Shown: positions 7,574-62,365, numbered from the stretch's first letter. The stretch is 64,000 nucleotides of DNA from Desulfosudis oleivorans (GCA_020723305.1 DYJC01000004.1:136261-200260); one strand, 5' to 3'. The notes: generated from the sequence alone by a model not told the origin. Program-made: numbers and translations.

Positions 7574-7601
7574 GATAAATTGTATAGAACAGGAATTGCT
7601 A

Positions 7602-37099: not shown

Positions 37100-38236
37100 T
37101 CATTTTCCCTGCCACCACTTGAAAATCCGGTAGTCATCCAGCATTCTCGATTCCTTTTTCAGAATGGCCATGGGTGGTACCAGATTGAGATCCTTGATGT
37201 CCCGTGCCGTACTGGAGCGCGCCATGGAATTCAGGTTGGACAGCATGGTGGCGGACATTCGCGCTCTTGTATCAGCATCGGCAGTCGCGCTGTGGGGCGT
37301 GAAGATAAAACACAGGTCGGGCCGTTCCTTGGCGATCTGACGGAACTCATTCAGGGTCTCCGCCGGCATGGGCTCATCCTCGTGAACATCCAAGGCCAGA
37401 TGGATCGAAATGTCCTTGTTTTTGAGCAAACGGATCAGGGCTTCGGTATCAATAACGCCACCCCGGGCCGTGTTGACCAGAAGAGCATGTGGCCTCATGA
37501 GACGCAACAGTCGCTCGCCGATGTAATGATGGGTACTCTCATCCAGTGGTATGTGTATGGAAATAATGTCGGCGGTCTTAAAAAGATGTTCCACGTCTTC
37601 ATAATAGTTGAGATTTGAATATTTTTCCTCCATTTCCCCACTTTGGAAAATGTCGTTGTAGGCGATATGGATGTCCCACGGCGCCACACGGTGCACCACC
37701 TCCCGGCCGATTTCCCCCATACCCAGAATACCATACGTCAGATTTTGGGTATTCTTGGCAATATGCCGGTCAAGATCCCATTTTTCATCCAATTTCCATT
37801 GGTTGTTCCAGACATAGTTGTTGAGCCCAACAATATTCCGCAGATTGGCAAGAATCAGGGAAACGGTGTATTCGGCAATGGTTCCGGCGAGAACCCCGGG
37901 TGTGTTGGTGACAACAACTCCCGGCTGGAGGTGGATGTGATTCCAACCTACGTTGCTAGTGCTGACGGCCTTGACGCTGGGAATGGAGGCAATCGACTCG
38001 GTGATCCGGTGACCTAAGTGACAGCCGATGAAATCCACTTCTTTCTCTTTCACTACGCGTATCATTTCTTCCTCGCTTGGGAAGCGGTTTTCAGAAACAA
38101 TCACGTGAGCCGCAGTGTTGAGGTTGCTCCAGACCTTGTTGATCATGAACTTATACTTTACGGAGACCTTCGGATTATCGGCAATCTCCCGAAAAACAGG
38201 AGATGCCAGGTATACGGTTGGAGTGGTTCCGCTCAT
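37100..38236 (-). CDS. D-isomer-specific 2-hydroxyacid dehydrogenase family protein
   Basis: 378 aa. NAD-binding motif GILGMGEIGREV. Its AAGGAGG RBS overlaps the true stop of the hydrogenase large subunit. Confidence 0.85.
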   Translation of the reverse strand: MSGTTPTVYLASPVFREIADNPKVSVKYKFMINKVWSNLNTAAHVIVSENRFPSEEEMIRVVKEKEVDFIGCHLGHRITESIASIPSVKAVSTSNVGWNHIHLQPGVVVTNTPGVLAGTIAEYTVSLILANLRNIVGLNNYVWNNQWKLDEKWDLDRHIAKNTQNLTYGILGMGEIGREVVHRVAPWDIHIAYNDIFQSGEMEEKYSNLNYYEDVEHLFKTADIISIHIPLDESTHHYIGERLLRLMRPHALLVNTARGGVIDTEALIRLLKNKDISIHLALDVHEDEPMPAETLNEFRQIAKERPDLCFIFTPHSATADADTRARMSATMLSNLNSMARSSTARDIKDLNLVPPMAILKKESRMLDDYRIFKWWQGK

Positions 38237-38248
38237 GTTTTTCCTCCT

Positions 38249-39700
38249 TTACTTTCGTTCAGGCCATTCCCGGATGACCTTGTTATGGGCGTCCATGATG
38301 GTGATGGATACGATGTGATCGCCGTCCAGGCGATGCGTTGCGCAGCTGATTCAGGGATCATAGGCGCGCACCGCCATTTCGATCCGGTTGAGGATCCCCT
38401 CCGTCACATTGCCGTCATGAATCAATAGTCGGGCGGCCTGCTTCACACTCAGGTTCATGGGCCCGAGATTGTGTGTTGTTCCGACGATAAGGTTGGCGCG
38501 GGTGATCAAACCGTTCTGGTCGGTGGAATAATCGTGGATCAGGGTGCCGCGCGGAGCTTCCACACATCCCACGCCTCGTCCGGCTTTAGGTTCAAAGGGC
38601 GCCCGTACGTTTGAGTCGGTAATGACCGGGTCGTTCAAAATCTCTATGGCCCTCTCTCCGGCATAAACCCCTTCAATCAGCCGGGCATAATGGTACAGCA
38701 AGGTGGCCTGGGCCGGCCGGCCGAACAGGGACCGGAACTCCTCCAGCTCGGCCTGGGCTTTGGGGGTGGCCATCCGGTCGGCCACATTAATGCGGGCCAG
38801 TGTGTTGGCTCGGTATATTCCTTTTGGATGATCCACATCCAGTGCAAAACCTTCATTCCAGCAGCGGGCATAGGGGAACTTGCCGTAAGAGTAAGGTTCC
38901 ACATGTTCACCTATATAATCGGCATAGTCCTCTACAAGAAAATCCGTAAAAGTTCCGTCAGCCTTCATCAAACGAATTTTGCCGTCATACAGGTTATGGG
39001 CACCGTTCTCATCAACGGTTCCGATAAAACCGGTAGTGATGACACCCAGGGTCTTGATGGCATCCATATATTTGGGGAACACATTCTTTTTGGCAAAATC
39101 CAGCGTGAACATCGAGAAATCCAGCACCTGCCTCATCTTGTCCAGAATATCGCGCCGCTCCTCTTCCAGCAGGGGTTTGGAAAAACCGCCCGGCACTCCG
39201 GCGACCGGGTGAATGGTCTTGCGTGAGAACTTGTCCAGGATCATCTTGACCATATAGCGCGTCTTGATCACCTGCTGGGCCAGTTCCGGATTGGCCTTGG
39301 CAATACCCACCACGTTGCGTACAGAGTAATCAGAGTCCGGACCGATGACAAAGTCCGGTGCTGCCAGGAAGTAGAAGTTCAAGAGTTTATCTTCTGCGTG
39401 TGCGATAGTCTGCATCAACTCCCGCAACTTGTGACCGGCCGGTGTCGGTGTCACTCCGAAGCAACGATCCACAGCTTTGTTGGAAGCCAGATGATGCATC
39501 CATGGGCAGATACCGCAAATCCGGCATACAATGTCCGGAAGCTCCTCGGCCGGTTTACCTTCGACAAATTTTTCGAATCCCCGCAGGGACATGTAGTTTA
39601 TACGGGCATCCTGATAGTTGCCAGCGTCGTCCAGCCAGATATTGATGGCCGCATGTCCCTCGATACGGGTTATCGGTTGAATGGTAATGGTTTGTGTCAT
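38249..39700 (-). CDS. mvhA: [NiFeSe] hydrogenase large subunit (Mvh/Vhu-type), selenocysteine at TGA 38351-38353
   Basis: N-terminal Ni site RICGIC. The track ORF stops at ...AVRAYDP-TGA. Reading through gives DP-U-ISCATH, the canonical DPCxxCxxH motif, plus a 27-aa tail up to TAA 38249-38251. That extension exactly fills the gap to the next gene. Confidence 0.85.
38318..38334 (-). promoter_or_regulatory. SECIS-like hairpin for mvhA
   Basis: RNA AUCGCC-UGGAC-GGCGAU, starting 16 nt 3' of the UGA. Confidence 0.55.
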
Positions 39701-39701
39701 A

Positions 39702-40643
39702 TCAACTCGATCTCCTTTCTTGGGTTACCGGTTTGAGCAAAGAATGGGCTCCTGAAAACCGAAGCAGCAAAGGTCGATTGGGGATGGATTTCAAATCAAT
39801 GCCGTTGGAGGCCAGCGCATTGAGCATATCCAGAAGCTGATTTCCCTCATGGCGCACCGGACCGGAGCATCCACGGCACGGTACACGGGCGGAGATACAG
39901 CGAGGTGTTATCGCGTCCCCTCCGCAACCGGCCCTGGTGACCGGCCCCATGCAGAGAAACCCCTGTTCGAGCAGACATCTCATCCGGTCGAGGGGTTCTC
40001 CAGGGGCACCGTACTTCGGAGCCGATAGAAATCGCCGGACTTTTTGGAGCTCTCCCTTGCCCTGACGCACGGTGGGGCAGGTGTCGCAAACGCTCTTGGA
40101 TGGCACCTCAAGGGGTTTGCCTTGCACAAGAGCGACCAGGGCGGAAAAAATATGATCCGGATGGGGCGGGCAACCCGGCAAATGGATATCCACCTTGATT
40201 TTCTCGTCCAGCGCATAACAGGTATTGAGGAGCGGAGGAATGCCGTCAGCCGGGTAGGCTCCCGGACGGTCGGTGGTTTCTGTGGAAAAGGCGCGGTCCA
40301 TGATCTCGTCCACTGTGTAGGTGTTTGCAAGGGACGGGATACCACCGTGTGTGGCGCAGGTCCCAAGAGCGATAATGAGGTTGCATCGTTTGCGCATCTC
40401 TAAGGCCACTTCCAAATGCTCCTCATTCCGGATGCCGCCACTGATGATGCCGACGTCTGCCTCCGGCAGCGAAAGGTGTTTCCGGTCACCAAGCTGTCCG
40501 TAATATTTGCTGTCCACTAAGGCCGGAAGGTGAACGATGTCCGCCACCGCCAGTATGTCAAGCAAACGCTCGCCCATGTCGATGATGGAAATTTCACATC
40601 CGGAGCACGAATTCAACCATTCACTCGAAACTCGGACACCCAT
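39702..40643 (-). CDS. mvhG: [NiFe] hydrogenase small subunit (MvhG-type)
   Basis: 313 aa with an AGGAGG RBS. N-terminal LNSCSGCEISI and further Fe-S Cys clusters. Its stop lies 1 nt from the large-subunit ATG. Confidence 0.85.
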   Translation of the reverse strand: MGVRVSSEWLNSCSGCEISIIDMGERLLDILAVADIVHLPALVDSKYYGQLGDRKHLSLPEADVGIISGGIRNEEHLEVALEMRKRCNLIIALGTCATHGGIPSLANTYTVDEIMDRAFSTETTDRPGAYPADGIPPLLNTCYALDEKIKVDIHLPGCPPHPDHIFSALVALVQGKPLEVPSKSVCDTCPTVRQGKGELQKVRRFLSAPKYGAPGEPLDRMRCLLEQGFLCMGPVTRAGCGGDAITPRCISARVPCRGCSGPVRHEGNQLLDMLNALASNGIDLKSIPNRPLLLRFSGAHSLLKPVTQERRSS

Positions 40644-40708
40644 GTTGGTCTCCTCCTGAAAGTTTTGTTAAAAAAGCCATTTTGAAGTGATTACCTTTTT
40701 CATTCCGG

Positions 40709-41827
40709 TTATCCTTTTACACGAACTCCTTTTTTTCCCAGTTTCCGGCGATTCTGCTGAGCGCTTCTGCGTTTTCCGGCTGAACTGGCGCGAACGATGG
40801 TAAGTGCCTGGGAAGCAAAGCCCGGATCATCTTTGACACTGAACTCTTCGATAGCGCCGGCGCTCCTTGCATCGGCAAAGACGGCCCGGCCCTGAGCCGA
40901 GCGGGTGATGACCGTGGTCCAGCCTTCCTCGGCGCCGATACCTCCGAATGAAATATCCGCAAATTCAGAGGAGTAATCCGGACAGAAGCTGCACGCAAAC
41001 CGCCTTATACCCTGCATTTCTTCCATGGCGATTTGCCTGACTTCACCACTCTTGAGATGCACCATCAGCTCTTCCTTGATGTTGATCTTGCGTACCTCAT
41101 TCCATTCAAATCCATTGTTTTCCGAAAGAGTACGTCGCTCACTATCCCCGAAAAGAAAATTTCCCGAGCAGAACAACCCCAGACAGAATTTGATGGATTC
41201 CGACGGAACCAGTCCAAGGGTCTGCATGCGCCTTACGGATTTGATCTGGCATGGGGTACCTACTAGGGCGACACGCTTCAACCCTTTTTTCATCATCGGA
41301 TCGAGTTCCTCGATGGAGGAAAAGGTAAGATACTGATCACTGAAATTCTTCATGCCGTGAGAGGTATCAAAGTAAAATCCGGCAGCCTCTTTAATTTCCT
41401 CGCTGGAGGTGGCCAGAAAAGGTCTACGCTGAAAGGGGCCGGACTGTTTGGTGACGATTGCGCCGTCAATACGGCCGCGCTCCAGAAGATGCAGGAGCAG
41501 GCCCGTAACAACGCCGCCGTCGGTAGCGATGCGGCGTACCGACGCATCCCCGGATCGGGCGACAGTCGTTTCTATGATCCGGCCCATGGGCGCTATCCAA
41601 CCCAGCCGTTCCCGGGTTTCGGCTTCCAGCTCATCCACCTCAGGGCAGATGGCATGGCACAATCCGCACTCGACGCACTTTTCAATTTCACTGTAAAGAG
41701 GTTTGCCATCCGCATCCAGGTCAAGGGCCCCGTAGTTAACAGCGCTGCAGAAGGTGACGCAGCCGCCGCAGCGGTGGCAAAGCCCTGGTTTCTGAACTTC
41801 CTGAATCAGGTCAAAAAAAGTTTTCAT
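40709..41827 (-). CDS. FrhB/FdhB-family (F420 hydrogenase/dehydrogenase beta-like) Fe-S flavoprotein
   Basis: 372 aa from ATG 41827 with an AAAGGAG RBS. Cys motifs CHRCGGCVTFC and CVECGLCHAICP. FrhB-like core (VALVGTPCQIKSVR...FCLGLFCSGNF). Confidence 0.8.
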   Translation of the reverse strand: MKTFFDLIQEVQKPGLCHRCGGCVTFCSAVNYGALDLDADGKPLYSEIEKCVECGLCHAICPEVDELEAETRERLGWIAPMGRIIETTVARSGDASVRRIATDGGVVTGLLLHLLERGRIDGAIVTKQSGPFQRRPFLATSSEEIKEAAGFYFDTSHGMKNFSDQYLTFSSIEELDPMMKKGLKRVALVGTPCQIKSVRRMQTLGLVPSESIKFCLGLFCSGNFLFGDSERRTLSENNGFEWNEVRKINIKEELMVHLKSGEVRQIAMEEMQGIRRFACSFCPDYSSEFADISFGGIGAEEGWTTVITRSAQGRAVFADARSAGAIEEFSVKDDPGFASQALTIVRASSAGKRRSAQQNRRKLGKKGVRVKG

Positions 41828-41864
41828 AACCGCTCCTTTCCGGGAGTGTCTGTGTGACTTCGGT

Positions 41865-43163
41865 TCATAGACCGACCTTCGAAAGGTCCGATCCAAGATA
41901 GGTCCGTTCGTTTTCGCCTAAGATCCCCATCGAAAGACAGATGATTGTCCACAGATGGATCGTATGATATTTGCCTTTAAAATATCCGTTGAGATCATGG
42001 ATCTGGGAATGACAATTGTGACAAGGGGCAACGCAATAATCAGCTCCGGTATTTGCGATCTGATCGAACTTAATCTTGCCAAAGCTGCGCCGGGCTTCCG
42101 GGTATCCGCCCTGGAGAGCCCCGCCGCCTCCACCGCAGCAATAGTTGTTGGAGCAGTTTGGGGTCATATCCACAAAGTTTTCCTCGCCCACAACCCGTTT
42201 GGTCACAAACCGCAGGTCTTCGGCATAGGCATCTCCGTAAGTCTTTCGTACCTGATTACATGGATCCTGAGCCGTGAATTTAACCTTCCGATCTTTGTTC
42301 CAGTCGGAATTGACCCTGAGCTTGCCCTCGCGGATCCATTTAGCGTATAATTGTACGATGGTAGTAATTTCAAAGTTGTGAGGGATGTTGAATTTTTTCA
42401 GTCCGGCCCGGACTGCAAAGAGTTCATGCCCTCACTCCGTGTTGACCCAATACTTGCATCCCAGATCATCCACGGCCTTGGCCTTGATGCGAACGATGCG
42501 CTCCCAGTTTTCATCATCGGCCATGAACATACAGTAGTTTTCAGCAGCCCAACCTTTGGTGCCGTAAGTCCAGTCCGCCCCGACAGTGCTCATGATCTTC
42601 CACAGTGGCACCATCTCGTCCGGCTCGGTGACGGGCTCCCGGGAATTCTGGTTAAGAAAGAATTCAGCCCCGGCTTTGTTGATAGGCGCCGTAAGGTTTT
42701 CCCAACCAGGCTGACTTGCCCGGACTTCTTCCAGGACATCCTCCACCACCATACGAAAATCCTCCCCGCTTGCACCCATGGCGCTGCAACTTTCGTTGAC
42801 GAGAGCCATATCACAGGAAGCACGGATTCCTTTAGGACGCTCTTCCCTAGGCCAGCTCTTGCGGGCATGATAAACAAGCTGGGGAATATCGATTTTCATC
42901 GGGCAGACATAAATGCAGCGCCAGCAGAGTGTGCAATTCCAGACCCACTCGGTTTTTAAAATCTGGTCATCCAGACCCATCGCGGCCATGCGCAGGAACC
43001 TTCGTGGATCCATATCCGCAAGGCCCGTGGCCGGGCAACCGGAGGCACAGGCTCCGCAGGTCAGGCAGGCGTTAAGATTCCCGCCATCGGGCAACAACTG
43101 CATGACCTTGTCCTTGAAAATGCTCTTTCTCTCTTTTCCGATCTTGACGGATTCAACGGTCAT
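41865..43163 (-). CDS. HdrC/HdrB-like fused Fe-S protein (2x[4Fe-4S] + CCG domains), selenocysteine at TGA 42432-42434
   Basis: Track ORFs 42432..43163 and 41865..42206 share one frame: 1299 nt, or 433 codons. The bridging sequence reads ...YWVNTE-U-GHELFAVRAGLKKF...DPCNQV...NYCCGGGGG...PCHNC. Confidence 0.75.
42399..42415 (-). promoter_or_regulatory. SECIS-like hairpin for the hdrCB-like gene
   Basis: RNA CAGUCCG-GGC-CGGACUG, starting 16 nt 3' of the UGA. Confidence 0.55.
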
Positions 43164-43169
43164 GGTCGC

Positions 43170-43628
43170 TCACCTCCCTTCCACATTGGTGTACGTTTCG
43201 GGTGCGGCTGACTTTTGCCGGCTCATGGGGCCGGGGCCCATGCCGCGGATTTTTTCAGTGAAACGGGTTACAACTTCGGCAAATCTTGGTGCCTCGGCAG
43301 ATGACACCCACTCGACAGTAAACCGTTCCGGGTCGATTCCCTGTATTTCAAGGACGATTTTGGCAGCTTCGCTTCGGTTCAGGGCCTTTTGATTACCTTC
43401 CAGGTAATGGCATTCCCCGAGATGTCAGCCCATCATGATGACCCCGTCTGCCCCACGATTAAAAGCTTCGAGGACAAGATCGGGGTGGACCATGCCGGAG
43501 CACATCACCCGCACGGCGCGCATGTTGGCCGGGTACTGCAACCGCCCCACGCCTGCCAAGTCTCCACCGGCATAGGCGCACCAGTTGCAGAGAAATCCCA
43601 GAATGACCGGTTCAAATTTTTCAGCCAT
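43170..43628 (-). CDS. mvhD: MvhD (hydrogenase delta subunit) with selenocysteine at TGA 43425-43427
   Basis: The track ORF ends at ...GADGVIMMG-TGA. Reading through gives G-U-HLGECHYLEGN (family motif GCHxGDCHY) and then ...IDPERFTVEWVSSAE to TGA 43170-43172. That stop lies 6 nt before the next ATG. Confidence 0.8.
43392..43408 (-). promoter_or_regulatory. SECIS-like hairpin for mvhD
   Basis: RNA AUUACC-UGGAA-GGUAAU, starting 16 nt 3' of the UGA. Confidence 0.55.
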
Positions 43629-43656
43629 GGTTGTGTTCTCCTTTATTATTGATCAT

Positions 43657-46600
43657 TCAAGCAACATCCTCAAGGGCCGCAACAACCTGAGCCCGCAATT
43701 GGTCCATCGTGAAACCATGAACATAAACCCCGCCCTTCGGGCATGTTGCCGAGCATAACCCGCACCCCTTGCACAGCGCCTTGTCGGTTGCGATCCTAAA
43801 ATGTCCTTGGCCATTTGCCGCCTGGTAGTTCTCGAGTTTGATGGCACGATAGGGACAGACATCCAAACACAGGGCGCAACCATCGCATTTATCGGTAACA
43901 AAAGACTTGATAGCGTCCAGGGTCATTTCGGTCTGGGACAGAATGACTGCTGCCCGTGCTGCCGCTGCCTTGGCCTGGGCAATGGTTTCGTTAAGCGGTT
44001 TGGGGTAGTTGCATAGTCCGGCAACAAAAAGGCCGTCCACCGACATATCCACGGGTCGCAGTTTCGGGTGGGCTTCGTTCAGGAAACCGTCGGCATTCGC
44101 AGCACATTTATAAAGTTCCGTCAGTTCGTGGGAATCGTTTGCCTCCATTGCAGCGGCCAGCACCACATGATCAACTGCGATACTGATCGGCATCCGCAGG
44201 ATGGGATCATAGGTCTTAACCGTCAGATCCTTTCCATCAAGGCTTACGGCCGGCTTCCTTTCCGGTCCATAACTGATGAAGAGCACTCCCAGATCCCGGG
44301 CCTTGCGATAGAGATCTTCCCGCTCACCGTATGTCCGGATGTCACGGTAAAGCACATAGACATTCATTTTTGGATTGAGCCCCTTGAGATGAATGACAGC
44401 CTTGACCGAATGGGTGCAGCAGATACGGCTGCAGTAAGGACGGCGTTCATCACGGGAACCGACACATTGTATGAAAACAATGCTCTGGGCTTTTTTAAGG
44501 CTTGCAGGATCATCGCGAAGCATGGCATCCAGATCCAGATGGGTGATGACCCGCGGATCCTGACCGAACAGATACTCCTCCGGCCGGGATTCCCGGCCGC
44601 CAATGGCCAGCACCGCGACACCATAGGCTATCTCGCGTTGTCCGCCGTTGACCTGAACCGTGCCGGAAAAATTACCGACAGAACCCTTGGCAGACGTGAC
44701 AGAGGCGTTTTTGAGTACCTGGATATTGGAGTGGGTTTCCACACGCTTGATGAGACTTTCCAGGTATGGCCGGATGGCTTCGCCCTGATCGGTAGTATTC
44801 ACTTTCCAGGCATTGCCGCCGAGACGGTCTGACTTTTCCAGCAGAACAGTTTCAAAATTCTGGTCAGCCAGACTCAAAGCCGTTTGCATCCCGGCCACTC
44901 CGCCGCCGATGACAAGGGCTTTCGGAATCACATTTACCTTGGTTCTCTCAATGGGTACGCTCAAGGCAGCCTTGGCTATCGCCATGCGAACCTGGTCCTT
45001 GGCTTTGGCCGTAGCCATTTCCGGTTCACGCTGATGAACCCATGCATTCTGGTTACGGATATTGGCCATCTCCACCAGGTATGGATTCAATCCTGTCTCC
45101 TGGAGGGTTTCCTGAAACAGAGCCTCGTGCGTACGCGGAGTGCAGGCCGCAATGATAATCCGGTTCAGGGAGTGTTCCACGATTTTTTTGGCCATCATCT
45201 CCTGTGTATCGGCCGAACAACTGAAAAGATTGTTTTCAACATGCACAACATGCGGCAGACTGCGTGCGTATCTCGCTACTTCGTCCACGTTGATGATGCC
45301 GGAAATGTTGATGCCGCAGGAGCAGATGAATACACCGATACGCACTTCTTCATTGGCAATACTGCGTTCAGATGGATAGATTTTTTGCTGGGTCAACTCG
45401 CCCCGGGATCGAATCAGTGCCGTGGTTGCTTCTACGGCAGCGGTGGAAGCCTCCGTCACCGCCCGCGGAATGGCTTTGGGAGTCTGAAAAGCACCGGCCA
45501 CATAGACTCCCGGCCGATTGGAGCAGGCCGGAGAGAAATCCGAAGTCTTGGCAAAGCGATATTGGTTAAGATCCAGTTTAAAGATGTCTGCCAGTTGCTT
45601 GACGTCCGTGGTCGGTTCCAACCCAATCGAAAGCACCGCCATATCGAAATGTTCGATCATGACCTGGCCGTCCTCCTGGGCGTAGCGCATGGTGACCCCG
45701 CAGTTGTCTTGTCCTGCCTCGATGGTGTGTGGCCGGGCTTTTACAAAACGCACGCCTTTGGCCTTGGCGCTTTCGTAGAATCGATCAAAATCCTTTCCGT
45801 GGCTGCGGATATCCATATAAAAAATACTCTGTTTCAGCCCCTCTCCGGCAATATGCTCGGCGGTTACCAGCGCCTCCTTGATGGCGTACATACAACATAC
45901 GCTAGAACAATAGCCGTTCTCGCACCGGTTGGTATTTCGCGAGCCCACGCACTGGATCCAGGCAATGCTTTTGGGTTCTCTGTGGTCCGAAGGACGCACA
46001 AGGTGTCCCATGCAAGGTCCGCCTGAAGATAGCAGGCGCTCATACTCCAGGCTGGTGACCACATCCGGAATTTTTCCATAGCCATAGAAGTCAAATCCCG
46101 ACGGATCAAAAGGCTTGAAACCCGGCGACAGGATGACGGCCCCCACATTCAGATCGACGATTTCCTCCTGGTCTTCGAAATTAATGGCGGAAGTGGGGCA
46201 GAACTTTTCGCAGGCTTTGCATTTTCCGCGTTTGAGGTAGATGCAGGTTTCACCGTCGATGGCGTATTTCAACGGCACAGACTGGCCATATTTGATATAG
46301 GCAGAGGTGCGCTGATTCAACCCCAGATTGAACTCGTCATCCACCTTGCGGGGGCATTTCTGCGCACACAAGCCGCAGGCAATGCATTTTTCCATATCGA
46401 TGTAACGTGGATTCTTCTTGACCTTGACGACGAAATTCCCAACTTCGCCGGAAACATCAACGACTTCCGACAACGTGAGGAGATTTACATTTAAATGCCG
46501 GCCGACCTCGACCAGTTTGGGGGAGATGATTCACATGGCGCAGTCGTTGGTGGGAAAGGTTTTGTCAAGCTGGGCCATGGCTCCGCCGATTCCGGAACTC

Positions 46601-46710
46601 TTTTCCACCAGGTGGACAAAATAACCGGAGTTGGCCAGATCCAGCGTTGCCTGCATGCCTGCGATTCCACCACCCACTACCAATACTGATCCGATGGGCT
46701 TTGCTGACAT
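43657..46710 (-). CDS. hdrA: Tandem-module HdrA-like flavoprotein (about 1017 aa), selenocysteine at TGA 46531-46533
   Basis: ATG 46710 has a GAGGTG RBS. The sequence reads GGGIAGMQ...[18 protein letters not shown] and continues straight into the 938-aa track ORF. A second module repeats GGGVAGMQ and IQCVGSRD...CSRICC. Ferredoxin motifs lie mid-protein and at the C-terminus. Confidence 0.8.
46498..46515 (-). promoter_or_regulatory. SECIS-like hairpin for hdrA
   Basis: RNA CUGGUC-GAGGUC-GGCCGG (6 bp, including two G-U pairs), starting 15 nt 3' of the UGA. The loop contains GGUC. Confidence 0.5.
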
Positions 46711-46977
46711 AGTCACCTCTTTGCTGTTAAAATTAAGGTTTTGGGTGAAGGGAAGGTCACCCTTTGAAGGAACTGTTTCGTTGCCGATCAGCTCCTGTAG
46801 GATATTTTCAGAAATGCCGTACTCCCGGCAGAAAATCCGGAACACGTTTTTATCGATCAGGTATTTCTTTCCAACCGTCGCCGTCGCTTTCAGCTTGCCG
46901 GAGTTGATCCAGTTCGTTACGGTGTTGCGGTGTACACCGAGTTTCCGGGCAAGTTGACCAACATGGATTGCGATCAT
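46711..46977 (-). other. In-frame HTH (excisionase/MerR-like, HTH_17-type) coding segment continuous with hdrA
   Basis: ATG 46977 has a GGAGG RBS 5 nt upstream. It encodes [46 protein letters not shown]... with no stop codon before the hdrA ATG at 46710. Confidence 0.5.
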
Positions 46978-46988
46978 GCAAACCTCCG

Positions 46989-47486
46989 TCAGATTGGTGT
47001 TAAGCCGATTTCCTCCATGATCCGTGCGCACATGCGCGGAACAGCCGTTTGAACCGGCTCTGAAAGTCCGACCGTAACCTCGTCGGGCAGGGTTGTCACC
47101 TGGACAACAAATACTTTCAAATCAATGGGGCTTTCTTCCTTTAATTCTTTTAACATGTTCGTGGTGGGGAACTGATGCAAAGAGAAATCGCAGATTTTTT
47201 CAGGCTGGATCTGTTCGATGTTAATTTCCCTGATTTCTCCGGGTGTGAACTCCGAACTGCTGGTAGCATCAATGATGATTATCTTACCGGGTTTTCGAGG
47301 TGACAACAGAATATCGAAAAGAAGATCCCGGATGGAAGTTCCGCAGTCGATTGTTGCTATGGTATCCGGCAGTTGATGATGTTCTTCCAGATATTGAATA
47401 ACCGCCGGACCAAAGCCGTCATCCCCGATCAGGGGATTTCCACAGCCAAGCACCAGACAATCATATTCAAATATCGGCTTTAGCAT
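46989..47486 (-). CDS. Hydrogenase maturation endopeptidase
   Basis: 165 aa. The N-terminus [16 protein letters not shown] is typical of the HycI/HybD/FrhD family. It is the first gene of the operon. Confidence 0.85.
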
Positions 47487-47841: not shown

Positions 47842-48990
47842 ATGATCCCACGAACATCCATACTCGCTACTCTGAAAAACGCGCTGGCCCGCAGTCGCAT
47901 AGTGGTTCTTGCAGGGCCTCGGCAATGCGGGAAAACAACGCTGGCCCGTGAACTGCTTGACGAAGAATCAGTCAACTACTTTGACCTCGAAGACCCATCA
48001 AGCCTGGCCCGTCTGGATGAACCCTTGACCGCGCTCGGGCCGCTCAAGGGGTTGGTGGTGATCGACGAGGTTCAACGACGCCCGGACCTGTTTCCAGTGC
48101 TGCGGGTGCTGGCTGACCGAAGAGATACTCCGGCCCGGTTCCTTATTCTCGGCAGTGCTTCGGGAGATCTTTTACGGCAGACCTCGGAAAGCCTTGCCGG
48201 AAAAATGGAACGGGTCACCATCGGCGGCTTTTCACTGGGAGAAGTTGGGATTCAAGAGGAAGATCGGTTGTGGCTTCGGGGCGGATTTCCTCTTTCTTAC
48301 CTGGCCCAAAGCAATATCGACAGCCTTGCGTGGCGTAAAAGCTTTATTCAAACTTTGCTTGAACGTGATTTTCCTCAATGGGGTGTGCGTGTTCCGGCAA
48401 TAACCCTTCAGCGATTCTGGGCCATGACAGCTCATTACAATGGACTTATCTGGAATTCGGCTGAGCCAGCCCGGGCTCTTGATGTAAGCGAGCCAACCGT
48501 CCGGCGCCACTTGGACCTGCTGACAGACGCCCTTATGATTCGTCAATTACCGCCGTATCATGTAAATTTAAAAAAACGGCAAGTGAAATCGCCGAAAATT
48601 TACATCCGGGACACCGGACTTCTACACCAGCTGCTCGGCATCGATTCCATGAAGGTACTGCTCACCCACCCAAAGCTGGGTGCATCGTGGGAGGGATTTG
48701 TCATTGAGCAGGTGTTGCAGATCGAACCTCATGACGAAGCCTTTTTCTGGGCCACTCACCAGGGTGCCGAGATCGACCTGATACTACGGCGGGGAAATGA
48801 ATTATTCGGTGTCGAATGTAAACGAACCGATACACCCCGGCTGACACCATCGATCCGGAATGCGATTGAAGATCTGGGATTAAAGCATGTACTCATTCTC
48901 TACCCAGGTATACGGCGGTTCCCATTATCGGATCAGGTGGAAGCTGTTCCCGCAGATACCATCGTCAAAGGCATATCGTTGTTTGAATAG
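47842..48990 (+). CDS. AAA ATPase with DUF4143-type C-terminal domain (second, divergent paralogue)
   Basis: 382 aa. Walker A GPRQCGKTTL and Walker B VVIDEVQ. Confidence 0.85.
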   Translation: MIPRTSILATLKNALARSRIVVLAGPRQCGKTTLARELLDEESVNYFDLEDPSSLARLDEPLTALGPLKGLVVIDEVQRRPDLFPVLRVLADRRDTPARFLILGSASGDLLRQTSESLAGKMERVTIGGFSLGEVGIQEEDRLWLRGGFPLSYLAQSNIDSLAWRKSFIQTLLERDFPQWGVRVPAITLQRFWAMTAHYNGLIWNSAEPARALDVSEPTVRRHLDLLTDALMIRQLPPYHVNLKKRQVKSPKIYIRDTGLLHQLLGIDSMKVLLTHPKLGASWEGFVIEQVLQIEPHDEAFFWATHQGAEIDLILRRGNELFGVECKRTDTPRLTPSIRNAIEDLGLKHVLILYPGIRRFPLSDQVEAVPADTIVKGISLFE

Positions 48991-50102: not shown

Positions 50103-51308
50103 ATGAGCATTCTGATTGCAGAAGATGAATCAATATCAAGAATTCTTTTAAAAAAAATGTTGGAAAAATTCGGCCATACGGTAATTATAGCAACAGATGG
50201 ACTAATGGCATGGGAATTGTTTCAGAAACACCAGCCTGCTGTTGTGATTACGGATTGGATGATGCCGGGAATGGACGGCATATCACTGTGCCAAAAAATA
50301 AGAAAAGAGGCTGTTTCAAGATATGTTTATATTATCATTGTTACAGCAAAAAATAATAAGACAGATGCAATAAAAGGACTTGAGGCAGGAGCGGATGATT
50401 ATATCGTCAAGCCGTTTTCCCCGGATGAAATACATGCAAGAATACGCTCGAGTGAAAGAATTATTCAACTTGAGAATAATTATAAAAAAGCCAGTTTGCA
50501 GCTCGTGCAGTCTGAAAAAATGGCTTCGGTTGGGCAGCTCGCCGCCGGGGTAGCGCATGAAATCAATAATCCTACAGGTTTTGTAAGCAGCAACTTAAAA
50601 ACGCTCTCGGACTATCAGGCGGATATCATTCAACTTATCCATATGTACAAACAGCTTTTGGAAAAAATTGAACTTTCTTATAAAAATCCTGAAAATAAAG
50701 ATGCTGTCCTGGAAGAGGTTGAAAAGATAAAAGCTTTTGAAAAAAATATTGATATTGCCTTTATTCAGGACGACTTTTCCAGTCTGATAAAAGATTGCCG
50801 TGATGGAATGGATAGAATCAAAAAGATCGTAATCGATCTGAAGGATTTTGCTCATCCGGGCAGTGATACGATGAAGATGGCGGATATTAATGCAGGCATT
50901 GAGTCCACGCTTAATGTGATTAATAATGAAATAAAATATAACGCCATTGTCAAAAAAGATTTTAGCGAACTTCCTTTGATAAACTGCTACCCACAGCAGC
51001 TGAATCAGGTTTTTATGAACATTATTGTAAATGCGGCTCATGCAATAACGGAAAAAGGGGAAATTACAGTTGCGACAAAATTAATCGATTCAAATGTTGT
51101 TGTTACCATACAGGATAATGGCTGTGGAATTAAAAAAGAAAATATCGGAAAAATTTTCGATCCTTTTTTTACAACCAAAGAGGTTGGAAAAGGCACAGGT
51201 CTTGGGCTGAATGTGGCATACAATATTATTAAAAAGCATAACGGAACAATAGAGGTTCAAAGCGAGGAAGGAATGGGCACAATGTTCACGATTACAATTC
51301 CGGCTTAA
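50103..51308 (+). CDS. Hybrid receiver-histidine kinase (REC-HisKA-HATPase_c)
   Basis: 401 aa. REC (ILIAEDE...[13 protein letters not shown]...TAK), H-box GVAHEINNP, and ATPase G-boxes (DNGCGI, GTGLGL). The gene is visibly more AT-rich than its neighbours. Confidence 0.88.
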
Positions 51309-51321
51309 ACCAAAAACAATT

Positions 51322-51443
51322 GAGCCAATTTCAAAACGATTAAAAAGCATCACACCGGCGAAAGTCTGTGCCCAGAAAAGAGCCGAAAATACCGGATTCA
51401 AATTTTCGCCTGAACTGCAACAACAGACCTTTGAAATTGGCTC
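51322..51443 (-). mobile_element. MITE-like repeat, copy C (short 122-bp form, inverted relative to A and B)
   Basis: Perfect termini GAGCCAATTTCAAAA...TTTGAAATTGGCTC. Flanked by AATT on both sides. It lies between convergent kinase genes. Confidence 0.85.
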
Positions 51444-51481
51444 AATTATTCATCATTTGATTATGATAGATAAGTTATAAG

Positions 51482-53095
51482 TTATAAAGCGTTTGAAAGA
51501 ACCGGCAGATGAATGGTGAACACCGTGCCTTTTCCGGCCTTACTGCTGACATTGATGCGTCCATGATGGCTCTCGATGATCTTATAAGCGATGTTCAGGC
51601 CCAGGCCCGTTCCTTTCCCGATCTCCTTGGTCGTAAAAAACGGATCGAATATTCTGGAAATGTGTTGCTCCGGTATACCAGCGCCCGTATCAGCGATTTC
51701 CACCTGAATTTCCTTATCCAGAGCACGTGTGGTGATGCGGATTTCACCCCGTGTTTCAATGGCCTGGGCTGCGTTGACCAGAAGATTCATGAACACCTGA
51801 TTCAGTTGTTGCGGAAAGGCATCGATGAAAGGCAACTCACCGTAATCCTTGATCACCTCGGCTTTGTACTTGATCTCATTCCAGATCACGTTCAGGGTTG
51901 ATTCAATCCCTGCGTTGATGTCGCAGGCAACCTTGTTCACTTCCCCAGGGTGGGAAAAATCTTTCAGATCCATGACGATCTTCTTCACCCGATCCAGACC
52001 TTCCCGGCATTCCGACAAGAGATTCGTCATATCCTCCATCAGATAATCGATATCGATATTTTTTTCCAGTGCTTCAATTTCACGAAGCGACTCTTCTTGT
52101 TGTGATCCGCCTTGTCCAAATGCATTACAAAAAATTCGATACTGACCGATCATTGTTTTCAGATCCTGCGCATACTCCCCCATTGTTTTAATATTACTGC
52201 TGATAAATCCTATGGGATTATTGATTTCGTGCGCCACACCTGCGGCAAGCTGCCCGATGGAGGACATTTTGTCGGATTGCACAAGCATGGTTTGGGCCTG
52301 CTTGAGTGCTTCCATATTTTTTTTCTGCTGGGTGACATCATGAAAAGTCACCACCATTCCTCGGATCTGGCCATCATGACGAAACAGATTTGCGCTGATC
52401 AACACATCCAGCAGATCCCCATCTTTGGTATACCGCCTGGTTTCAAATCCAGTACAGCTCTCTCCTTCCAATACCTTGCGGACCTGGTCACCGGTAGCTT
52501 TCTTTTGATCCTCCGGAACAAAATCGATTCTTCTGCCCAGCAGTTCTTCTTTTTTCCAGCCGAAAACAATGCTGAAAGCCGGGTTGACGTATCCGACTTC
52601 ACCTTCCATATTGTATACGACAATGGGATCCGCGGCAGCATCCATGACCGCATGAATTTCCTCTTCTTTTTGAACTAGAATATTGGCTAGTTGATTATAC
52701 TCCGTCCAGCGATCGGTTTTCGGTTTCCGGGTGTTTCCCCACCATAGACCACAGGCAATTCTGGCCTGCAACTCCTGTGGATCGATCGGACAAACAATGA
52801 AATCATCCAATCCGCTCTGGACCAGTTCCAGTCCATCGGCAGTCCGATCGATGATGGCCAGCAAAACAATATACCGGACAGCGTTGAAAGCCCGGATATC
52901 AAGGCACATGCGCAGAATTTCCGGTAAAGGTTTGCCTCTCCCATCCAGGAGAATTACATCCGGCAGATCCTCATTCACGATCTGTAAGTTCATCTCCTCA
53001 TTATCGAGAAGCACCATCCTGAAGTCTTCCATATGAAGATGGCCATACAACTCCTGTTTCCGGTTTGAGATGATCGCTATTTTCGGTTTGTCCAT
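51482..53095 (-). CDS. Sensor histidine kinase (degenerate REC-like N-terminus, PAS, HisKA, HATPase_c)
   Basis: 537 aa. PAS region ([21 protein letters not shown]), H-box GVAHEINNP and G-boxes (DTGAGI, GTGLGL). The kinase core is clearly paralogous to 50103..51308. Confidence 0.88.
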
Positions 53096-53168
53096 AGGAT
53101 ACCTTTTTCAAAAGCAAATTAAGTGCTGTCGGGGATTTTCTATCTCTTACAGTCTTATGGTCTGATCT

Positions 53169-53600
53169 TCATTTATTTCTTTCCCTCATCCGAATCCCAT
53201 GGGTTTCCAACAGTTCGCTGTACTCTCCTCGCATAAAACGAAGCAGCTCGGTTCTGCCCGTAGCGGCCGGCACCCCTTTGTTCATAAGAAACTGTTGGAT
53301 TTTGCCGAATATTTCCCGGCGTTTCAGACCCTCTGGAGAAGAATCCCGGCGTTCTGAAAAAAAATCAAGCAAGGTAGAGCCGCAAACACAATTGCGAAAC
53401 AATTCCACGATGGTTTCTTCCTGATCGCCGATGGAACTTTTCAAGCCCGTGCTGCCGGGAACCGCCTGGGACTTGCGGATAAATTCCTCCGCTGAGTGGA
53501 ACAGGCATCCGCAATTGGGGCATTTTTTGGGAAATGCGCTTTCCGACAAGGCCTTCAAGCCTGAATAAAGACTGGTGAAATCATCATGTATATCCGCCAT
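53169..53600 (-). CDS. Hypothetical Cys-rich protein (possible zinc ribbon)
   Basis: 143 aa from ATG 53600 (MADIHDD...). Cys pairs CPNCGC and CVCG. The longer track start (53627) runs into MITE copy D. Confidence 0.5.
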   Translation of the reverse strand: MADIHDDFTSLYSGLKALSESAFPKKCPNCGCLFHSAEEFIRKSQAVPGSTGLKSSIGDQEETIVELFRNCVCGSTLLDFFSERRDSSPEGLKRREIFGKIQQFLMNKGVPAATGRTELLRFMRGEYSELLETHGIRMRERNK

Positions 53601-53614
53601 GAAAATTGTCCTGT

Positions 53615-53736
53615 GAGCCAATTTCAAAACTATTATAAAGCGTCACACCGGCGAAAGTCAGTGCATAAAAAAGAGCCGAAAGTACTAGATCTTAATTTTC
53701 GCCGGAACTACAACAACAGACTTTTGAAATTGGCTC
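53615..53736 (-). mobile_element. MITE-like repeat, copy D (short 122-bp form)
   Basis: Perfect termini GAGCCAATTTCAAAA...TTTTGAAATTGGCTC. It is flanked by the non-palindromic direct repeat CTGT (53611-53614 and 53737-53740). Confidence 0.85.
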
Positions 53737-53746
53737 CTGTGTATTT

Positions 53747-54622
53747 TTATTCTCTTCTCTCAAGGTCGGCTGACACTACTCCTTTTTTTTCCATTACCAT
53801 TACCATGCCTTTTCCACGGAATCGGCCGGAAAGCGGAATGAATCCGATCCGGAATCGACCACCTGCCAGATCACATTCATTCATATACAAAACAGCCTGA
53901 TGTGAAATAGCCGCCCGGATATTCTTTTCTACTGCTTCCGGAAAATAATCGGAAACCGATGTTCCCAAATCAATCTTTTGCCCGTCAAAAGACAATTCCT
54001 GTGCCATACGGTTGATCAGCACGATCATTCCTTCCAAGCTGACGCCGATGATGCTGACAGGTATATCTTCCAGAATGGCATGAGATAGCTCAAGCGCCTG
54101 ATTCTTGATTTCGATTTCGTTCGTCCGTTTGCGGACCATCTCCTCAAGGTTGTTGTTCATGCTGATCAGTTCTTCGTTCTGCCGGATTATTTTTTCTTGC
54201 AGTTGTTTGTTGGCTTGAGAAAGTTCATATTGATCCAAGGCCTGCCGGATTTCCAGCTTCAGGTTTTGATCATTCCAGGGTTTCAGGAAAAATTTGTAAA
54301 TATGCCCCTTATTGATGGCATCGGTGATGGCATCCACTTCCGTATATCCGGTCAGCGTAATCCGGATAATGTCCGGATATTTTTCCTTCACCACCTTAAA
54401 AAATTCCGTGCCGCTCATCTCCGGCATACGGTGATCGGAAATGACCAGATGTACATTGTTTTTTTCCAGCAAGGCCAACCCTTCCGCTCCGCTTCCGGCC
54501 GTCAGGATCTGATAATTTTCCTTGCGAAGTAAGCGTTTAAGCGCATTCAGGATATTCGCTTCATCATCGACGCATAAAATGCAGTGTTGTGCAACGCTCG
54601 TCTGTTGAGCATTATTTGTCAT
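53747..54622 (-). CDS. Response regulator (REC, coiled coil, PAS-like C-terminal domain)
   Basis: 291 aa. REC motifs (ILCVDDE...LVISDHRMPEMSG...LKPW). Confidence 0.8.
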   Translation of the reverse strand: MTNNAQQTSVAQHCILCVDDEANILNALKRLLRKENYQILTAGSGAEGLALLEKNNVHLVISDHRMPEMSGTEFFKVVKEKYPDIIRITLTGYTEVDAITDAINKGHIYKFFLKPWNDQNLKLEIRQALDQYELSQANKQLQEKIIRQNEELISMNNNLEEMVRKRTNEIEIKNQALELSHAILEDIPVSIIGVSLEGMIVLINRMAQELSFDGQKIDLGTSVSDYFPEAVEKNIRAAISHQAVLYMNECDLAGGRFRIGFIPLSGRFRGKGMVMVMEKKGVVSADLERRE

Positions 54623-54678
54623 CTTCCCTCCATTGACAACTTCAAGACCGGTTATAGACTATTCAGAACCTCTTTTCC

Positions 54679-55599
54679 CTATAAATCTTCTTCCCCTGTT
54701 TCTTTTCCCTCATCCTTTTGCTTTGAGCTTTGAACTCCACTGATACTGCTTTCTTCCCCCATGAAAAAACGGCAGGCAGAGGTGATTTCTTCCGCCAGGC
54801 CGGGAAGCCAGTCCTGCATGGATCGAATGGCGGTTTTCATCTTCACGGCAGCTGACTGATCCAGTTCGGAAATATATTTTCGATCCTTGATTTCAGCCAG
54901 AAAAGCATTCGAGAGAATATCGGCTGTATGAACGACCATCAGCATATCCTGATCGGAAGATGCGTTGCTGCATTGATGATGAAATTTGATCGTATCGATC
55001 AAAGCCCGTGGAAGTTGCCATCTTTCGGCCAGATAACCTCCGATACGAGCATGATTCAAAACATCCGCTTCCTTTTCAGCCGCCATAAAGGAAATGTTTT
55101 GTTGGCTCATCAAACCCATGATATCCTGAAACTGTTCCTTGAAATGCTGATAAAGCACAATTTTACCGATATCGTGCAACAATCCGCTTAGAAAACACGT
55201 TTCCGGATTGCCGATATGGATCAATTCGGATAATTTTTTGGCTGTCAAAGCAGTTGCAATCGAATGTTTCCAATAGCCTTTCACATCAAAGTCGCCGGTT
55301 TTACCGGCAAAGGCTTCGATTACGGAAACGGATACCACCACGTTCCGCACGGAATTGAATCCCAGCATGGCAATGGCTTCCGACAAGGTGTTCACCCGTG
55401 ATCGCAAACCGAAAAAAGCCGAATTCACAAGCTTCAGCAGGCGGGAAACAATGGCCTGATCCTTTTCAATCGTTTCGCATAAACGTTCGATCGTGATTTC
55501 TTCCTCCTGAAGCATCCGGTTCACCTTCATGGCGATTTCCGGTAATGTTGGCAGATCTCGGATACGTTCCAGTTTTTTATATGCAGCGCTTTTATCCAT
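54679..55599 (-). CDS. HDOD domain protein
   Basis: 306 aa. LPTLPEIAMKVNRML...GLLHDIGKIVL pattern. Confidence 0.85.
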   Translation of the reverse strand: MDKSAAYKKLERIRDLPTLPEIAMKVNRMLQEEEITIERLCETIEKDQAIVSRLLKLVNSAFFGLRSRVNTLSEAIAMLGFNSVRNVVVSVSVIEAFAGKTGDFDVKGYWKHSIATALTAKKLSELIHIGNPETCFLSGLLHDIGKIVLYQHFKEQFQDIMGLMSQQNISFMAAEKEADVLNHARIGGYLAERWQLPRALIDTIKFHHQCSNASSDQDMLMVVHTADILSNAFLAEIKDRKYISELDQSAAVKMKTAIRSMQDWLPGLAEEITSACRFFMGEESSISGVQSSKQKDEGKETGEEDL

Positions 55600-55602
55600 C
55601 CA

Positions 55603-56976
55603 TCACTCCTTGGATTTTGAAACAACAATTTCCAGATTCTCTTCGATCAACTCAGCACGGAAAAGCCTCCTGATCGTCCCAATCAGATATGTGTCGAGGA
55701 CAATATCCTTGGAAAGCAGTAATTTCCCATCCATTGTGCGCAGATCCTTGGCCAGTTTCATGCCGCCTTCCAGATAGCGCACCCGGACCTGCTGGGTGCT
55801 TCTGTTTTCCCTTTGCCGCCGGTCCTCTCCGGTATATTTAATCAGTTTCATGATGACTTCCGGATCATACTTATTATTTTCCCCCAACATGAGTGATCTC
55901 TCACCGATCTCATGCAGCATGGCGGCAGAGGTAAGATCCTCAAGGTTCTTTATTATCTCGGAACCAAAAGCGATCTTGGCCTTTTTGATCATTTTGTTCT
56001 TGTCTTCCGGCCAGAGATTGACAATTTTGGCGTATTCCCCTGCAGCGGCGATAATCCGGGAGCCCAGTGGTATGGCTTCGGCTTTCAGACTGTTGGGCGT
56101 TCCGCTCCCGTCAAAGTGCTCGTGATGGTGAAGAACGATTTCCGTAACCGGTTTCAGCTTTTCCACGTTCTGGATTAAAAACAACGAAATGGTAACATGC
56201 TCCCGGAAAAATTTCGCTTCACCCTGGGTCATCTCGGACTCGTCTTTGATCATCAACTCAGCCGGTAATCCAAGTAAACCGATATCGTGTAAAAGACCTG
56301 CGATCTCGATATGCTCCAAAGCCTCATCCTGAACATTGTAATCCTTGGCCACCCGTTTAGCCAGGCTTGCCGTTTGCTTGGCATAGCTCCCCAGACTTGG
56401 ATTGATCGCATCCACAAAAGTGATCAACAGGTTAATGGTGCTGATAAAACTTTTATTCAGGGCCTTGTTCTTTTTCTCCAGTTCGAGGGTCTTGGCTTCA
56501 ATGATGCTTTTCTGTTTCATCCCCAGCTCGTACAGTTGCTTGTTCTGATTCTGCACCAGAGCATTCAGACGCCGATTCTCCAGAACGAGTTCATACTGTT
56601 CAAGAGCCTGCTCCACTTGAACCAGCAGTTGCTCATCATTCCAGGGTTTGGTAAAATACCGATGAATTTCACCTTTATTGACCGCATCGACGATGGCAGA
56701 CACATCGGAATAACCGGTCAATAGAATACGGATGATCTCCGGCCGGATGCGTTTGGCTTGTTCCAGAAATTCCGAGCCGCTCATTCCCGGCATGCGCTGA
56801 TCGGAAATGATCAGGGAGATCGATTCCTTGTTGCTTTCCAGACAGACCAGGCCATCCGCACCATTCAAGGCCGTATGGATCTGATAGCCTTTGTTCCGAA
56901 ACACCCGTTTCAGGGCATTGGCGATATTGGCTTCATCGTCCACGATCAGAATTTGGTGCTGATAGGATGGTTTCAT
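55603..56976 (-). CDS. Response regulator with HD-GYP-type phosphodiesterase domain (variant motif)
   Basis: 457 aa. REC (ILIVDDE...SDQRMPGMSG...TKPW), LLHDIGLLG, and HHHEHFDGSGTPN, in which GYP reads GTP. Confidence 0.85.
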   Translation of the reverse strand: MKPSYQHQILIVDDEANIANALKRVFRNKGYQIHTALNGADGLVCLESNKESISLIISDQRMPGMSGSEFLEQAKRIRPEIIRILLTGYSDVSAIVDAVNKGEIHRYFTKPWNDEQLLVQVEQALEQYELVLENRRLNALVQNQNKQLYELGMKQKSIIEAKTLELEKKNKALNKSFISTINLLITFVDAINPSLGSYAKQTASLAKRVAKDYNVQDEALEHIEIAGLLHDIGLLGLPAELMIKDESEMTQGEAKFFREHVTISLFLIQNVEKLKPVTEIVLHHHEHFDGSGTPNSLKAEAIPLGSRIIAAAGEYAKIVNLWPEDKNKMIKKAKIAFGSEIIKNLEDLTSAAMLHEIGERSLMLGENNKYDPEVIMKLIKYTGEDRRQRENRSTQQVRVRYLEGGMKLAKDLRTMDGKLLLSKDIVLDTYLIGTIRRLFRAELIEENLEIVVSKSKE

Positions 56977-57004
56977 TTTCCTGCCTTTTATAATTGATAC
57001 TCTT

Positions 57005-58084: not shown

Positions 58085-58113
58085 GATTTACCTCCTTAGT
58101 ATAGACTGTGGCC

Positions 58114-59823: not shown

Positions 59824-59861
59824 TTCAGTTGATCCTTTTTTAGGATAGGTTGTGAGGCAGG

Positions 59862-61763: not shown

Positions 61764-62218
61764 TTCTTTATCCCATTAGGTGGCAAGGTGACGATTGTCA
61801 TCCAGAAGTTCTCTATGGATTTCACGACATTGATAAACTGCATCAGATCGATAGGTTTGGTGATGAAGCAGTTGGCATGCAGATTATAAATTTGGATCAC
61901 ATCCTCCTCATTCCGGGATGTGGTCAGAATCACCACGGGTATGCGCCTCAAGTTTTCATCATCCTTGATTACAGATAGAACTTCCCAGCCGTCTTTCCGG
62001 GGCAGGTTAAGGTCCAGCAGAATCAAATCCGGCCGCAATGCTTCCCGGTAATGGCCTTCCTTTTTTAAATAGGCCAGGGCCGCCTCTCCGTCACCGACAA
62101 CATGCAGGTTGTTCAGTATTTTACTGGTTTCCATTGCTTCCCGTGTCAGATCCGCGTCTCCGGGATTATCCTCCACCAGCAAGATTTCAATGGGTTTCAT
62201 CAATGGATGTTCTGTCAT
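61760..62218 (-). CDS. Single-domain response regulator (CheY-like)
   Basis: 152 aa from ATG 62218 with a GGGAGGG RBS 6 nt upstream. Motif [10 protein letters not shown]...[11 protein letters not shown]...TKP. The longer track start lies within repeat-derived sequence. Confidence 0.85.
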
Positions 62219-62280
62219 GGGAATCCCTCCCTTCCGTCCCATAAGTGCTAAATTGATAAACTCGTAAAAAGTCTCTGAAT

Positions 62281-62353: not shown

Positions 62354-62365
62354 AATTGAGAAATT

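Follow-up and report, generated by a model that had tools for sequence, protein, structure and literature searches.

Hairpins following four in-frame UGA codons in a hydrogenase gene cluster of Desulfosudis oleivorans are probable bacterial selenocysteine insertion sequences

A gene cluster on the minus strand of a 64-kb stretch of Desulfosudis oleivorans DNA (GCA_020723305.1, DYJC01000004.1:136261-200260; hereafter the window) contains four in-frame UGA codons, each followed at short distance by a hairpin. These four hairpins are very probably bacterial selenocysteine insertion sequences (bSECIS). The cluster occupies 38.2-47.5 kb of the window, and its genes, assigned from translations and Pfam scans, are arranged in the order hycI, HTH-hdrA, mvhD, hdrCB(GlpC)-like, frhB-like, mvhG and mvhA in this Desulfobacterales-type bacterium (Table 1). 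The in-frame UGAs are found in hdrA, mvhD, the hdrCB-like gene and mvhA, past which the reading frame stays open for a further 957, 84, 188 and 33 codons, respectively, and they fall at redox or metal-ligand cysteine (Cys) positions. The terminator UGAs of hdrA, mvhD, hdrCB and mvhG (43659, 43172, 41867 and 39704) have no such hairpin on their 3' side. UGA has two meanings within a few kilobases of one operon, and only the hairpin tells them apart. The bacterial SECIS reading was put forward in the original prediction, and is now supported by pairs of selenocysteine (Sec) and Cys forms, by the coupling of hairpin to UGA, by frozen wobble sites, by compensatory changes and by agreement with the published model of these elements.

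The hairpins had been described as stems of 6-7 bp placed 15-16 nt past the UGA. Their sequences match those originally quoted exactly, and folding with RNAfold gives the stems again, which start 16 nt past the UGA in mvhA, mvhD and hdrCB and 15 nt past it in hdrA. In mvhD, quoted as AUUACC-UGGAA-GGUAAU, and in hdrCB the hairpin is better taken as a 7-bp stem closed by three nucleotides (GGA and GGC, respectively), and in hdrA, quoted as CUGGUC-GAGGUC-GGCCGG, as 7 bp including two G.U pairs, with the loop AGGU. With the U of UGA numbered +1, a sharper rule than the one first noted emerges: all four loops carry GG at +27/+28, and the 3' arm ends at +36 in all four. The loop G-G thus lies 23-24 nt past the UGA at every site. 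A C-C/G-G clamp tops the stem in three of the four gene families, and in mvhD a lower helix is possible in which CUCGGG pairs with CCCUGA.

The idea that minimum-free-energy (MFE) folds favour these stems holds only in part: the pair probabilities are 0.8-1.0 for hdrA, hdrCB and mvhD and about 0.3 for mvhA in a 60-nt context. As isolated hairpins the four have energies of -7.8 (mvhA), -9.1 (hdrCB), -9.1 (hdrA) and -4.5 kcal/mol (mvhD). By MFE the four sites rank only in the top 5-18% of operon codons.

A hairpin of at least 6 bp at offset 15-16 occurs at 2.3% of positions over the whole window, and the proportion among the 2838 in-frame codons of the operon is likewise 2.3%; this background rate gives a probability of about 3e-7 for four out of four. 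When GG at +27/28 is also demanded, the pattern follows 4 of 2834 non-UGA codons, as against all four UGAs, in frame across the operon. The earlier statement that the pattern is hard to explain by chance is therefore borne out, as it is not equally frequent after random in-frame positions.

Homologues of the four genes were compared at the UGA columns. A protein search with the HdrCB-like sequence gave only full-length homologues of at most 70% identity, and all 120 of these proteins have Cys (TE-C-GH) at the UGA column. A genome scan with the alignment (A1) of those homologues yielded 80 loci from Desulfobacterales and other Thermodesulfobacteriota, up to 85% identical, and the hdrCB-like column is TGA in all 80. 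The top protein-database matches are all Cys paralogues, as opposed to TGA in all of the nearest genomic loci, because gene callers truncate Sec genes; Sec forms are thus common but hidden in protein databases by truncated gene calls. The homologous sites in the same loci comprise 16 TGA and 40 TGC/TGT codons in mvhD, 36 TGA and 8 Cys codons in hdrA, and 8 TGA codons in mvhA. The UGAs align with Cys positions that homologues conserve, within the motifs TE[C/U]GH (hdrCB-like), G[C/U]H (MvhD) and CAM[C/U] (HdrA).

Hairpins at offset 15-16 accompany the Sec forms and not the Cys forms. In mvhD they are present in 16 of 16 Sec forms and in none of the 40 Cys forms, and in hdrA in 31 of 36 Sec forms (with four more shifted) and in none of the 8 Cys forms. 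In hdrCB they are present in 76 of 81 Sec forms; Cys forms are absent from these loci, and none of the hdrCB Cys forms examined has a hairpin in that register. G occupies +27 at all 141 Sec sites. An hdrCB-like Cys paralogue of Desulfonema magnum (L083:8727-8776) has, at offset 10 from the Cys codon, a 7-bp hairpin that is unrelated (CCUAUUC-UGUCU-GGAUGGG). It would satisfy the loop and spacing rules of the generic bSECIS model and is either a chance occurrence or a remnant; the generic model is permissive.

Third-codon-position entropy drops to about 0 bits within the hairpin, even at the four-fold degenerate codons GUC, CGG and GGU, and is 1-1.9 bits in the flanks; wobble sites frozen only inside the hairpin point to selection at the RNA level. 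The closing pair of the hdrCB stem is GC in 69 of 76 distinct orthologues, UA in 5 and AU in 1, a further pair is AU in 59, GU in 14 and GC in 2, and the covariation score was reached by none of 500 shuffles. In mvhA, two-sided compensatory changes are found from U-A to C-G in 2 of 8 sequences and from C-G to U-A in 1 of 8. The mvhD stem does not vary among 15 distinct Sec forms, even at wobble sites. In hdrA, 98.7% of cells are paired over 34 orthologues, and all changes are wobble-compatible.

A natural control is provided by a related metagenome-assembled genome, which has this operon with its gene order unchanged and with the HTH_17-HdrA fusion as well (L081 3363-12600 and L082 2473-11760; the source of the best protein hit, P0001). 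The HdrA, MvhD and HdrCB codons are TGT, TGT and TGC there, and all three hairpins are lost. In MvhA both the TGA and the hairpin are kept, and in L081 bases have changed yet still pair (ACCGUC-UGGAU-GGCGGU). The peptides remain similar (A-F-R-V-G-L for A-V-R-A-G-L) and the codons differ. This operon is the strongest single evidence that the hairpins serve the UGA and not the protein, and it is a clean example of piecemeal Sec-to-Cys (or Cys-to-Sec) switching inside one operon.

The published bSECIS model (bSECISearch, Zhang & Gladyshev 2005, summarised in PMC13188914) asks for 3-9 nt in the loop, which begins with G[G/U], 4-16 bp in the stem, a UGA-to-loop distance of 16-37 nt and an MFE of at most -7.5 kcal/mol. 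The hairpins described here lie in coding sequence directly 3' of an in-frame UGA at all four sites, as the model requires. Their loops (3-5 nt) and stems (6-7 bp) are within its limits, as are their UGA-to-loop distances of 22, 23, 23 and 22 nt, and each has G in the first two loop positions followed by G (U-GG-AC, GG-A, GG-C and A-GG-U). UGA is paired with Cys in homologues and TGA is conserved in other organisms. As isolated hairpins, mvhA, hdrCB and hdrA have energies of -7.8 to -9.1 kcal/mol, whereas mvhD falls short of the energy limit. There is no essential difference from the model, except that the register is much tighter, the G at +27 being shared by all 141 sites in four gene families. 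It is possible, though this is offered tentatively, that Desulfobacterales use an unusually rigid SECIS register, with the loop G exactly at +27 (23 nt past the UGA) and the 3' arm ending at +36. If so, the rigidity could reflect a lineage-specific geometry of SelB and the ribosome.

Some observations weigh against the SECIS reading. The mvhA stem competes with another fold, which is the MFE structure at 50-60 nt. Stability against dinucleotide shuffles is unremarkable (z = -0.05, -1.93, -1.61 and -0.40), and with z-scores this weak stability alone would not have picked these sites. The mvhD hairpin by itself (-4.5 kcal/mol) misses the limit of -7.5 kcal/mol and passes only with its lower helix (-15.4 kcal/mol over 50 nt). 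The stems of hdrA and mvhD are conserved without two-sided covariation (34 and 15 forms), and the register is not absolutely fixed, five hdrA orthologues having a stronger hairpin 5 nt further 3'. The window gave no Rfam match at gathering score, and 38000-47200 no SECIS match at E values up to 10. No selA, selB, selC or selD gene is present in the 64-kb window, where ARAGORN likewise finds no tRNA or tRNA-Sec. SelB binding and Sec insertion at the four sites are deduced by analogy.

Two other explanations would deprive the hairpins of a role in Sec insertion. According to one, they have no function in the RNA and arise as by-products from codon bias and the conservation of peptide motifs. The peptides are indeed somewhat permissive of hairpins: random synonymous recoding with the peptides fixed produces them with probabilities of 0.12, 0.063, 0.026 and 0.070, that is, in 2.6-12% of trials against the 2.3% background, and the unexceptional folding energies and the want of two-sided covariation in the hdrA and mvhD stems agree with such an origin. 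The joint recoding probability is, however, only about 1e-5, and the freezing of four-fold degenerate sites is limited to the hairpin and to Sec forms. Cys orthologues with similar peptides (A-F-R-V-G-L, H-Y-Q-D-G-N) choose codons that break the stem, and residue replacements are paired with compensating synonymous changes (CGG/GCC to CUG/GCA in hdrCB, U-A to C-G in mvhA), which leaves this explanation highly improbable. Equally slight is the chance that UGA is read without SelB, through reassignment or near-cognate read-through, with the hairpin as a generic stimulator of pausing or read-through. In its favour, the window holds no sign of Sec machinery, but four genes of this very operon end at UGA in the ordinary way and all four sites are at Cys positions of known selenoprotein families. 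A loop G that never varies, with G or U after it, is moreover the SelB-recognition signature of the bSECIS model and not one of generic stimulators.

A third proposal, that the 6-7-bp hairpins are just a portion of functional elements with a larger or different structure, refines the SECIS reading and does not replace it. It draws on the lower helices of mvhD and hdrCB and on the downstream hdrA hairpin. The gain of the mvhD fold on adding its lower helix (-15.4 vs -4.5 kcal/mol) speaks for it, as does the extension of the stem through GAAUUUUUU/AAAAAAUUC in many hdrCB orthologues. The five hdrA orthologues mentioned above (L051:6456-6506, L041:4728-4778, L011:6563-6613, L033:6391-6441 and L032:306-356) read GAGUGCGGUCGGCAC at the place of the window's GAGGUCGGCCGGCAU and keep the main-register stem only via G.U wobbles. 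Their shifted hairpin, UGAGUGC-GGUCG-GCACUUA with the loop GGUCG, shows a synonymous switch from C-G to U-A, and is a further point in favour. This shifted hairpin may represent SECIS turnover, of which the five orthologues would then be snapshots. On the other side, the lower helices are not kept across orthologues, the main-register hdrA hairpin can pair in 34 of 34 orthologues, and in E. coli only the upper stem-loop is reportedly required (Liu et al. 1998). Larger elements are accordingly considered unlikely, though far less so than the two explanations above.

If the hairpins are bSECIS, their mode of action would follow the established E. coli and Moorella system. The C-terminal winged-helix domain of SelB, within the SelB-GTP-Sec-tRNASec complex, would bind the loop and upper stem while the hairpin is located at the ribosome's mRNA entrance. 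Sec-tRNASec would be placed at the A site by the fixed spacing as the UGA arrives, and Sec would be inserted with no termination by release factor 2. UGAs that have no hairpin, such as the stops of hdrA, mvhD, hdrCB and mvhG, would terminate translation as normal.

In E. coli, the minimal fdhF hairpin starts 11 nt past the UGA and has a bulged U in its upper stem and a GGUC loop with G23/U24. The hairpins reported here resemble the fdhF and fdnG SECIS, where SelB binding has been defined by experiment, in lying 3' of the UGA, in their G-rich apical loops and in presumed tethering of SelB. They differ from fdhF in that the stems start at 15-16 nt and contain no bulge, the loop G is at +27, about 4 nt further downstream, and the loops read UGGAC, GGA, GGC and AGGU; they would work like the fdhF SECIS but are not of its sequence type. 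Archaeal and eukaryotic SECIS elements, by contrast, are built on a kink-turn or GAA_A core and are found in untranslated regions. Both these and the Rfam SECIS families share with the present hairpins the function of recoding UGA as Sec.

The original prediction also proposed that the four hairpins could serve as a lineage-specific SECIS descriptor for finding further selenoproteins. A joint covariance model of the several families was dropped: in the MAFFT alignment hdrCB came out one column away from mvhA and mvhD, and, the pairing register of hdrA being offset by one as well, there was no common structure line, so an explicit descriptor was scanned instead. It required at least 6 bp of stem from offset 15-16 and 3-6 nt of loop, with +27 being G and falling in loop position one or two and +28 being G or U, and was run over 1.29 Mb (the window and 84 loci). 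The descriptor matched 185 TGA triplets, with 65 expected by chance. These include 130 of the 141 known sites and two that are the mvhA sites of L081/L082; the other 53 in the 1.29 Mb are at chance level and none is in a plausible gene. The proposal is thus only partly supported: the descriptor is sensitive but not specific, and revealed no further selenoprotein. In agreement with the literature, its hits have to be filtered by open reading frame (ORF) and by Cys homologue. With such filters a rigid register, if real, could sharpen the finding of selenoproteins in this selenoprotein-rich clade.

A SECIS-independent search of the window and loci for TGA-split ORFs not shadowed by another frame gave only ordinary gene ends and non-coding frames. 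Two candidate selenoproteins in the window were rejected. An OYE-like gene (14648-15886) has no continuation past its TGA. An Ada-like methyltransferase (22093-22962, minus strand), with AraC-HTH and methylated-DNA-protein-cysteine methyltransferase domains, has Cys at the position in question (PCHR); its family has known Sec-containing members.

An operon of this type, glpC-hdrA-frhD-frhG-frhA, with five genes and four selenoproteins, was described in Deltaproteobacteria by Zhang et al. 2006 (PMC1794560), its hosts being Syntrophobacter fumaroxidans and Desulfotalea psychrophila. It is restated in a 2026 review (PMC13188914), in which the four families are listed as selenoproteins. The present cluster agrees with that operon in having Sec in HdrA, FrhD/MvhD, the GlpC-type Fe-S oxidoreductase and the large subunit, in the clustering of the small subunit and in the double HdrA. 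It differs in gene order, in an extra frhB-like gene and in the fusion of HTH_17 to HdrA. The finding is a further instance of a well-known element in an operon type known since 2006 and involves no new mechanism; the only reading with some modest novelty is the rigid lineage-specific register, which is somewhat more doubtful than not. For annotation, the four apparent gene breaks would be Sec codons, and HdrA, MvhD, the GlpC-like protein and MvhA would be annotated as full-length selenoproteins, not as fragments or pseudogenes. The comparative set, with its 141 Sec sites, some 50 Cys sites and a syntenic operon switched at three of four sites, is a clean illustration of the co-evolution of SECIS and UGA, and also suggests a tight lineage-specific register.

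Table 1. Genes, predicted Sec codons and hairpins of the cluster, in window coordinates
Feature	Position	Strand	Evidence and remarks
hycI-like hydrogenase maturation protease, first in cluster	46989..47486	-	Pfam PF01750, E = 3e-20; position matches syntenic loci L081/L082
hdrA-like, HTH_17 + duplicated (fused double) HdrA, ~1106 codons	43657..46977	-	translation; Pfam Pyr_redox_2, Fer4, HTH_17
hdrA predicted Sec codon UGA	46531-46533	-	motif NDCAM-U-IISPK; terminator UGA 43657-43659
hdrA hairpin CUGGUCG-AGGU-CGGCCGG	46498..46515 (+19 to +36)	-	MFE and centroid, -10.2 kcal/mol; pair probabilities 0.82-0.91
mvhD (FlpD family)	43170..43628	-	Pfam PF02662, E = 6.5e-50
mvhD predicted Sec codon UGA	43425-43427	-	motif MMG-U-HLGECHY; terminator UGA 43170-43172
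mvhD hairpin AUUACCU-GGA-AGGUAAU	43392..43408 (+20 to +36)	-	50-nt MFE fold -15.4 kcal/mol, z = -1.93
hdrCB-like / GlpC-type Fe-S oxidoreductase (Fer4 + CCG domain)	41865..43163	-	Pfam PF02754, PF13183
hdrCB-like predicted Sec codon UGA	42432-42434	-	motif VNTE-U-GHELF; terminator UGA 41865-41867
hdrCB hairpin CAGUCCG-GGC-CGGACUG	42399..42415 (+20 to +36)	-	MFE and centroid; pair probabilities 0.87-1.0
frhB/fdhB-like Fe-S flavoprotein gene, no Sec	40709..41827	-	Pfam PF04432, PF04422
mvhG, [NiFe] hydrogenase small subunit, no Sec	39702..40643	-	Pfam PF01058; terminator UGA 39702-39704
mvhA, [NiFeSe] hydrogenase large subunit	38249..39700	-	Pfam PF00374, translation; stop TAA 38249-38251
mvhA predicted Sec codon UGA	38351-38353	-	motif AYDP-U-ISCATH
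mvhA hairpin AUCGCC-UGGAC-GGCGAU	38318..38334 (+20 to +36)	-	MFE at 40, 45 and 70 nt, not at 50-60 nt

Two proteins of the cluster have additional features. MvhD has a single predicted Sec (G-U-HLGE-C-HY), the second position of the motif being Cys; FrhD/MvhD proteins have two Sec in archaeal forms and one in bacterial forms (PMC1976440). The HTH_17 (excisionase/MerR-like) domain is fused in frame at the N-terminus of HdrA (46846-46962, minus strand; PF12728, E = 2.6e-9), and the Cys-type orthologue of L081/L082, whose product has 1109 aa, shares the fusion. For HdrA, an electron-bifurcating flavoprotein, to carry a DNA-binding domain is odd.

The G+C content of the operon (38236-46977) is 0.535, compared with 0.463 in the rest of the window. 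At third codon positions (GC3) it is 0.59-0.64, only slightly above the 0.50-0.62 of neighbouring genes. Lateral transfer of this operon type has been proposed in the literature, and horizontal transfer was considered here as a reason for the higher G+C; with GC3 barely above that of the neighbours, nothing in these data shows transfer. Two paralogous ATPase genes with AAA_14 and DUF4143 domains are located at 16608-17768 (minus strand) and 47842-48990 (plus strand), one of them directly upstream of the hydrogenase cluster. An ORF of 742 amino acids (7596-9824, plus strand) has no Pfam match at E <= 1e-5. The gene at 25712-28654 encodes a Ser/Thr kinase that has PEGA repeats together with an FGE-sulfatase domain. 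The region 50103-63973 is dense in two-component and HD-domain signalling genes (response regulators, PAS histidine kinases, HD-GYP-like HD_5 and HDOD), mostly on the minus strand.

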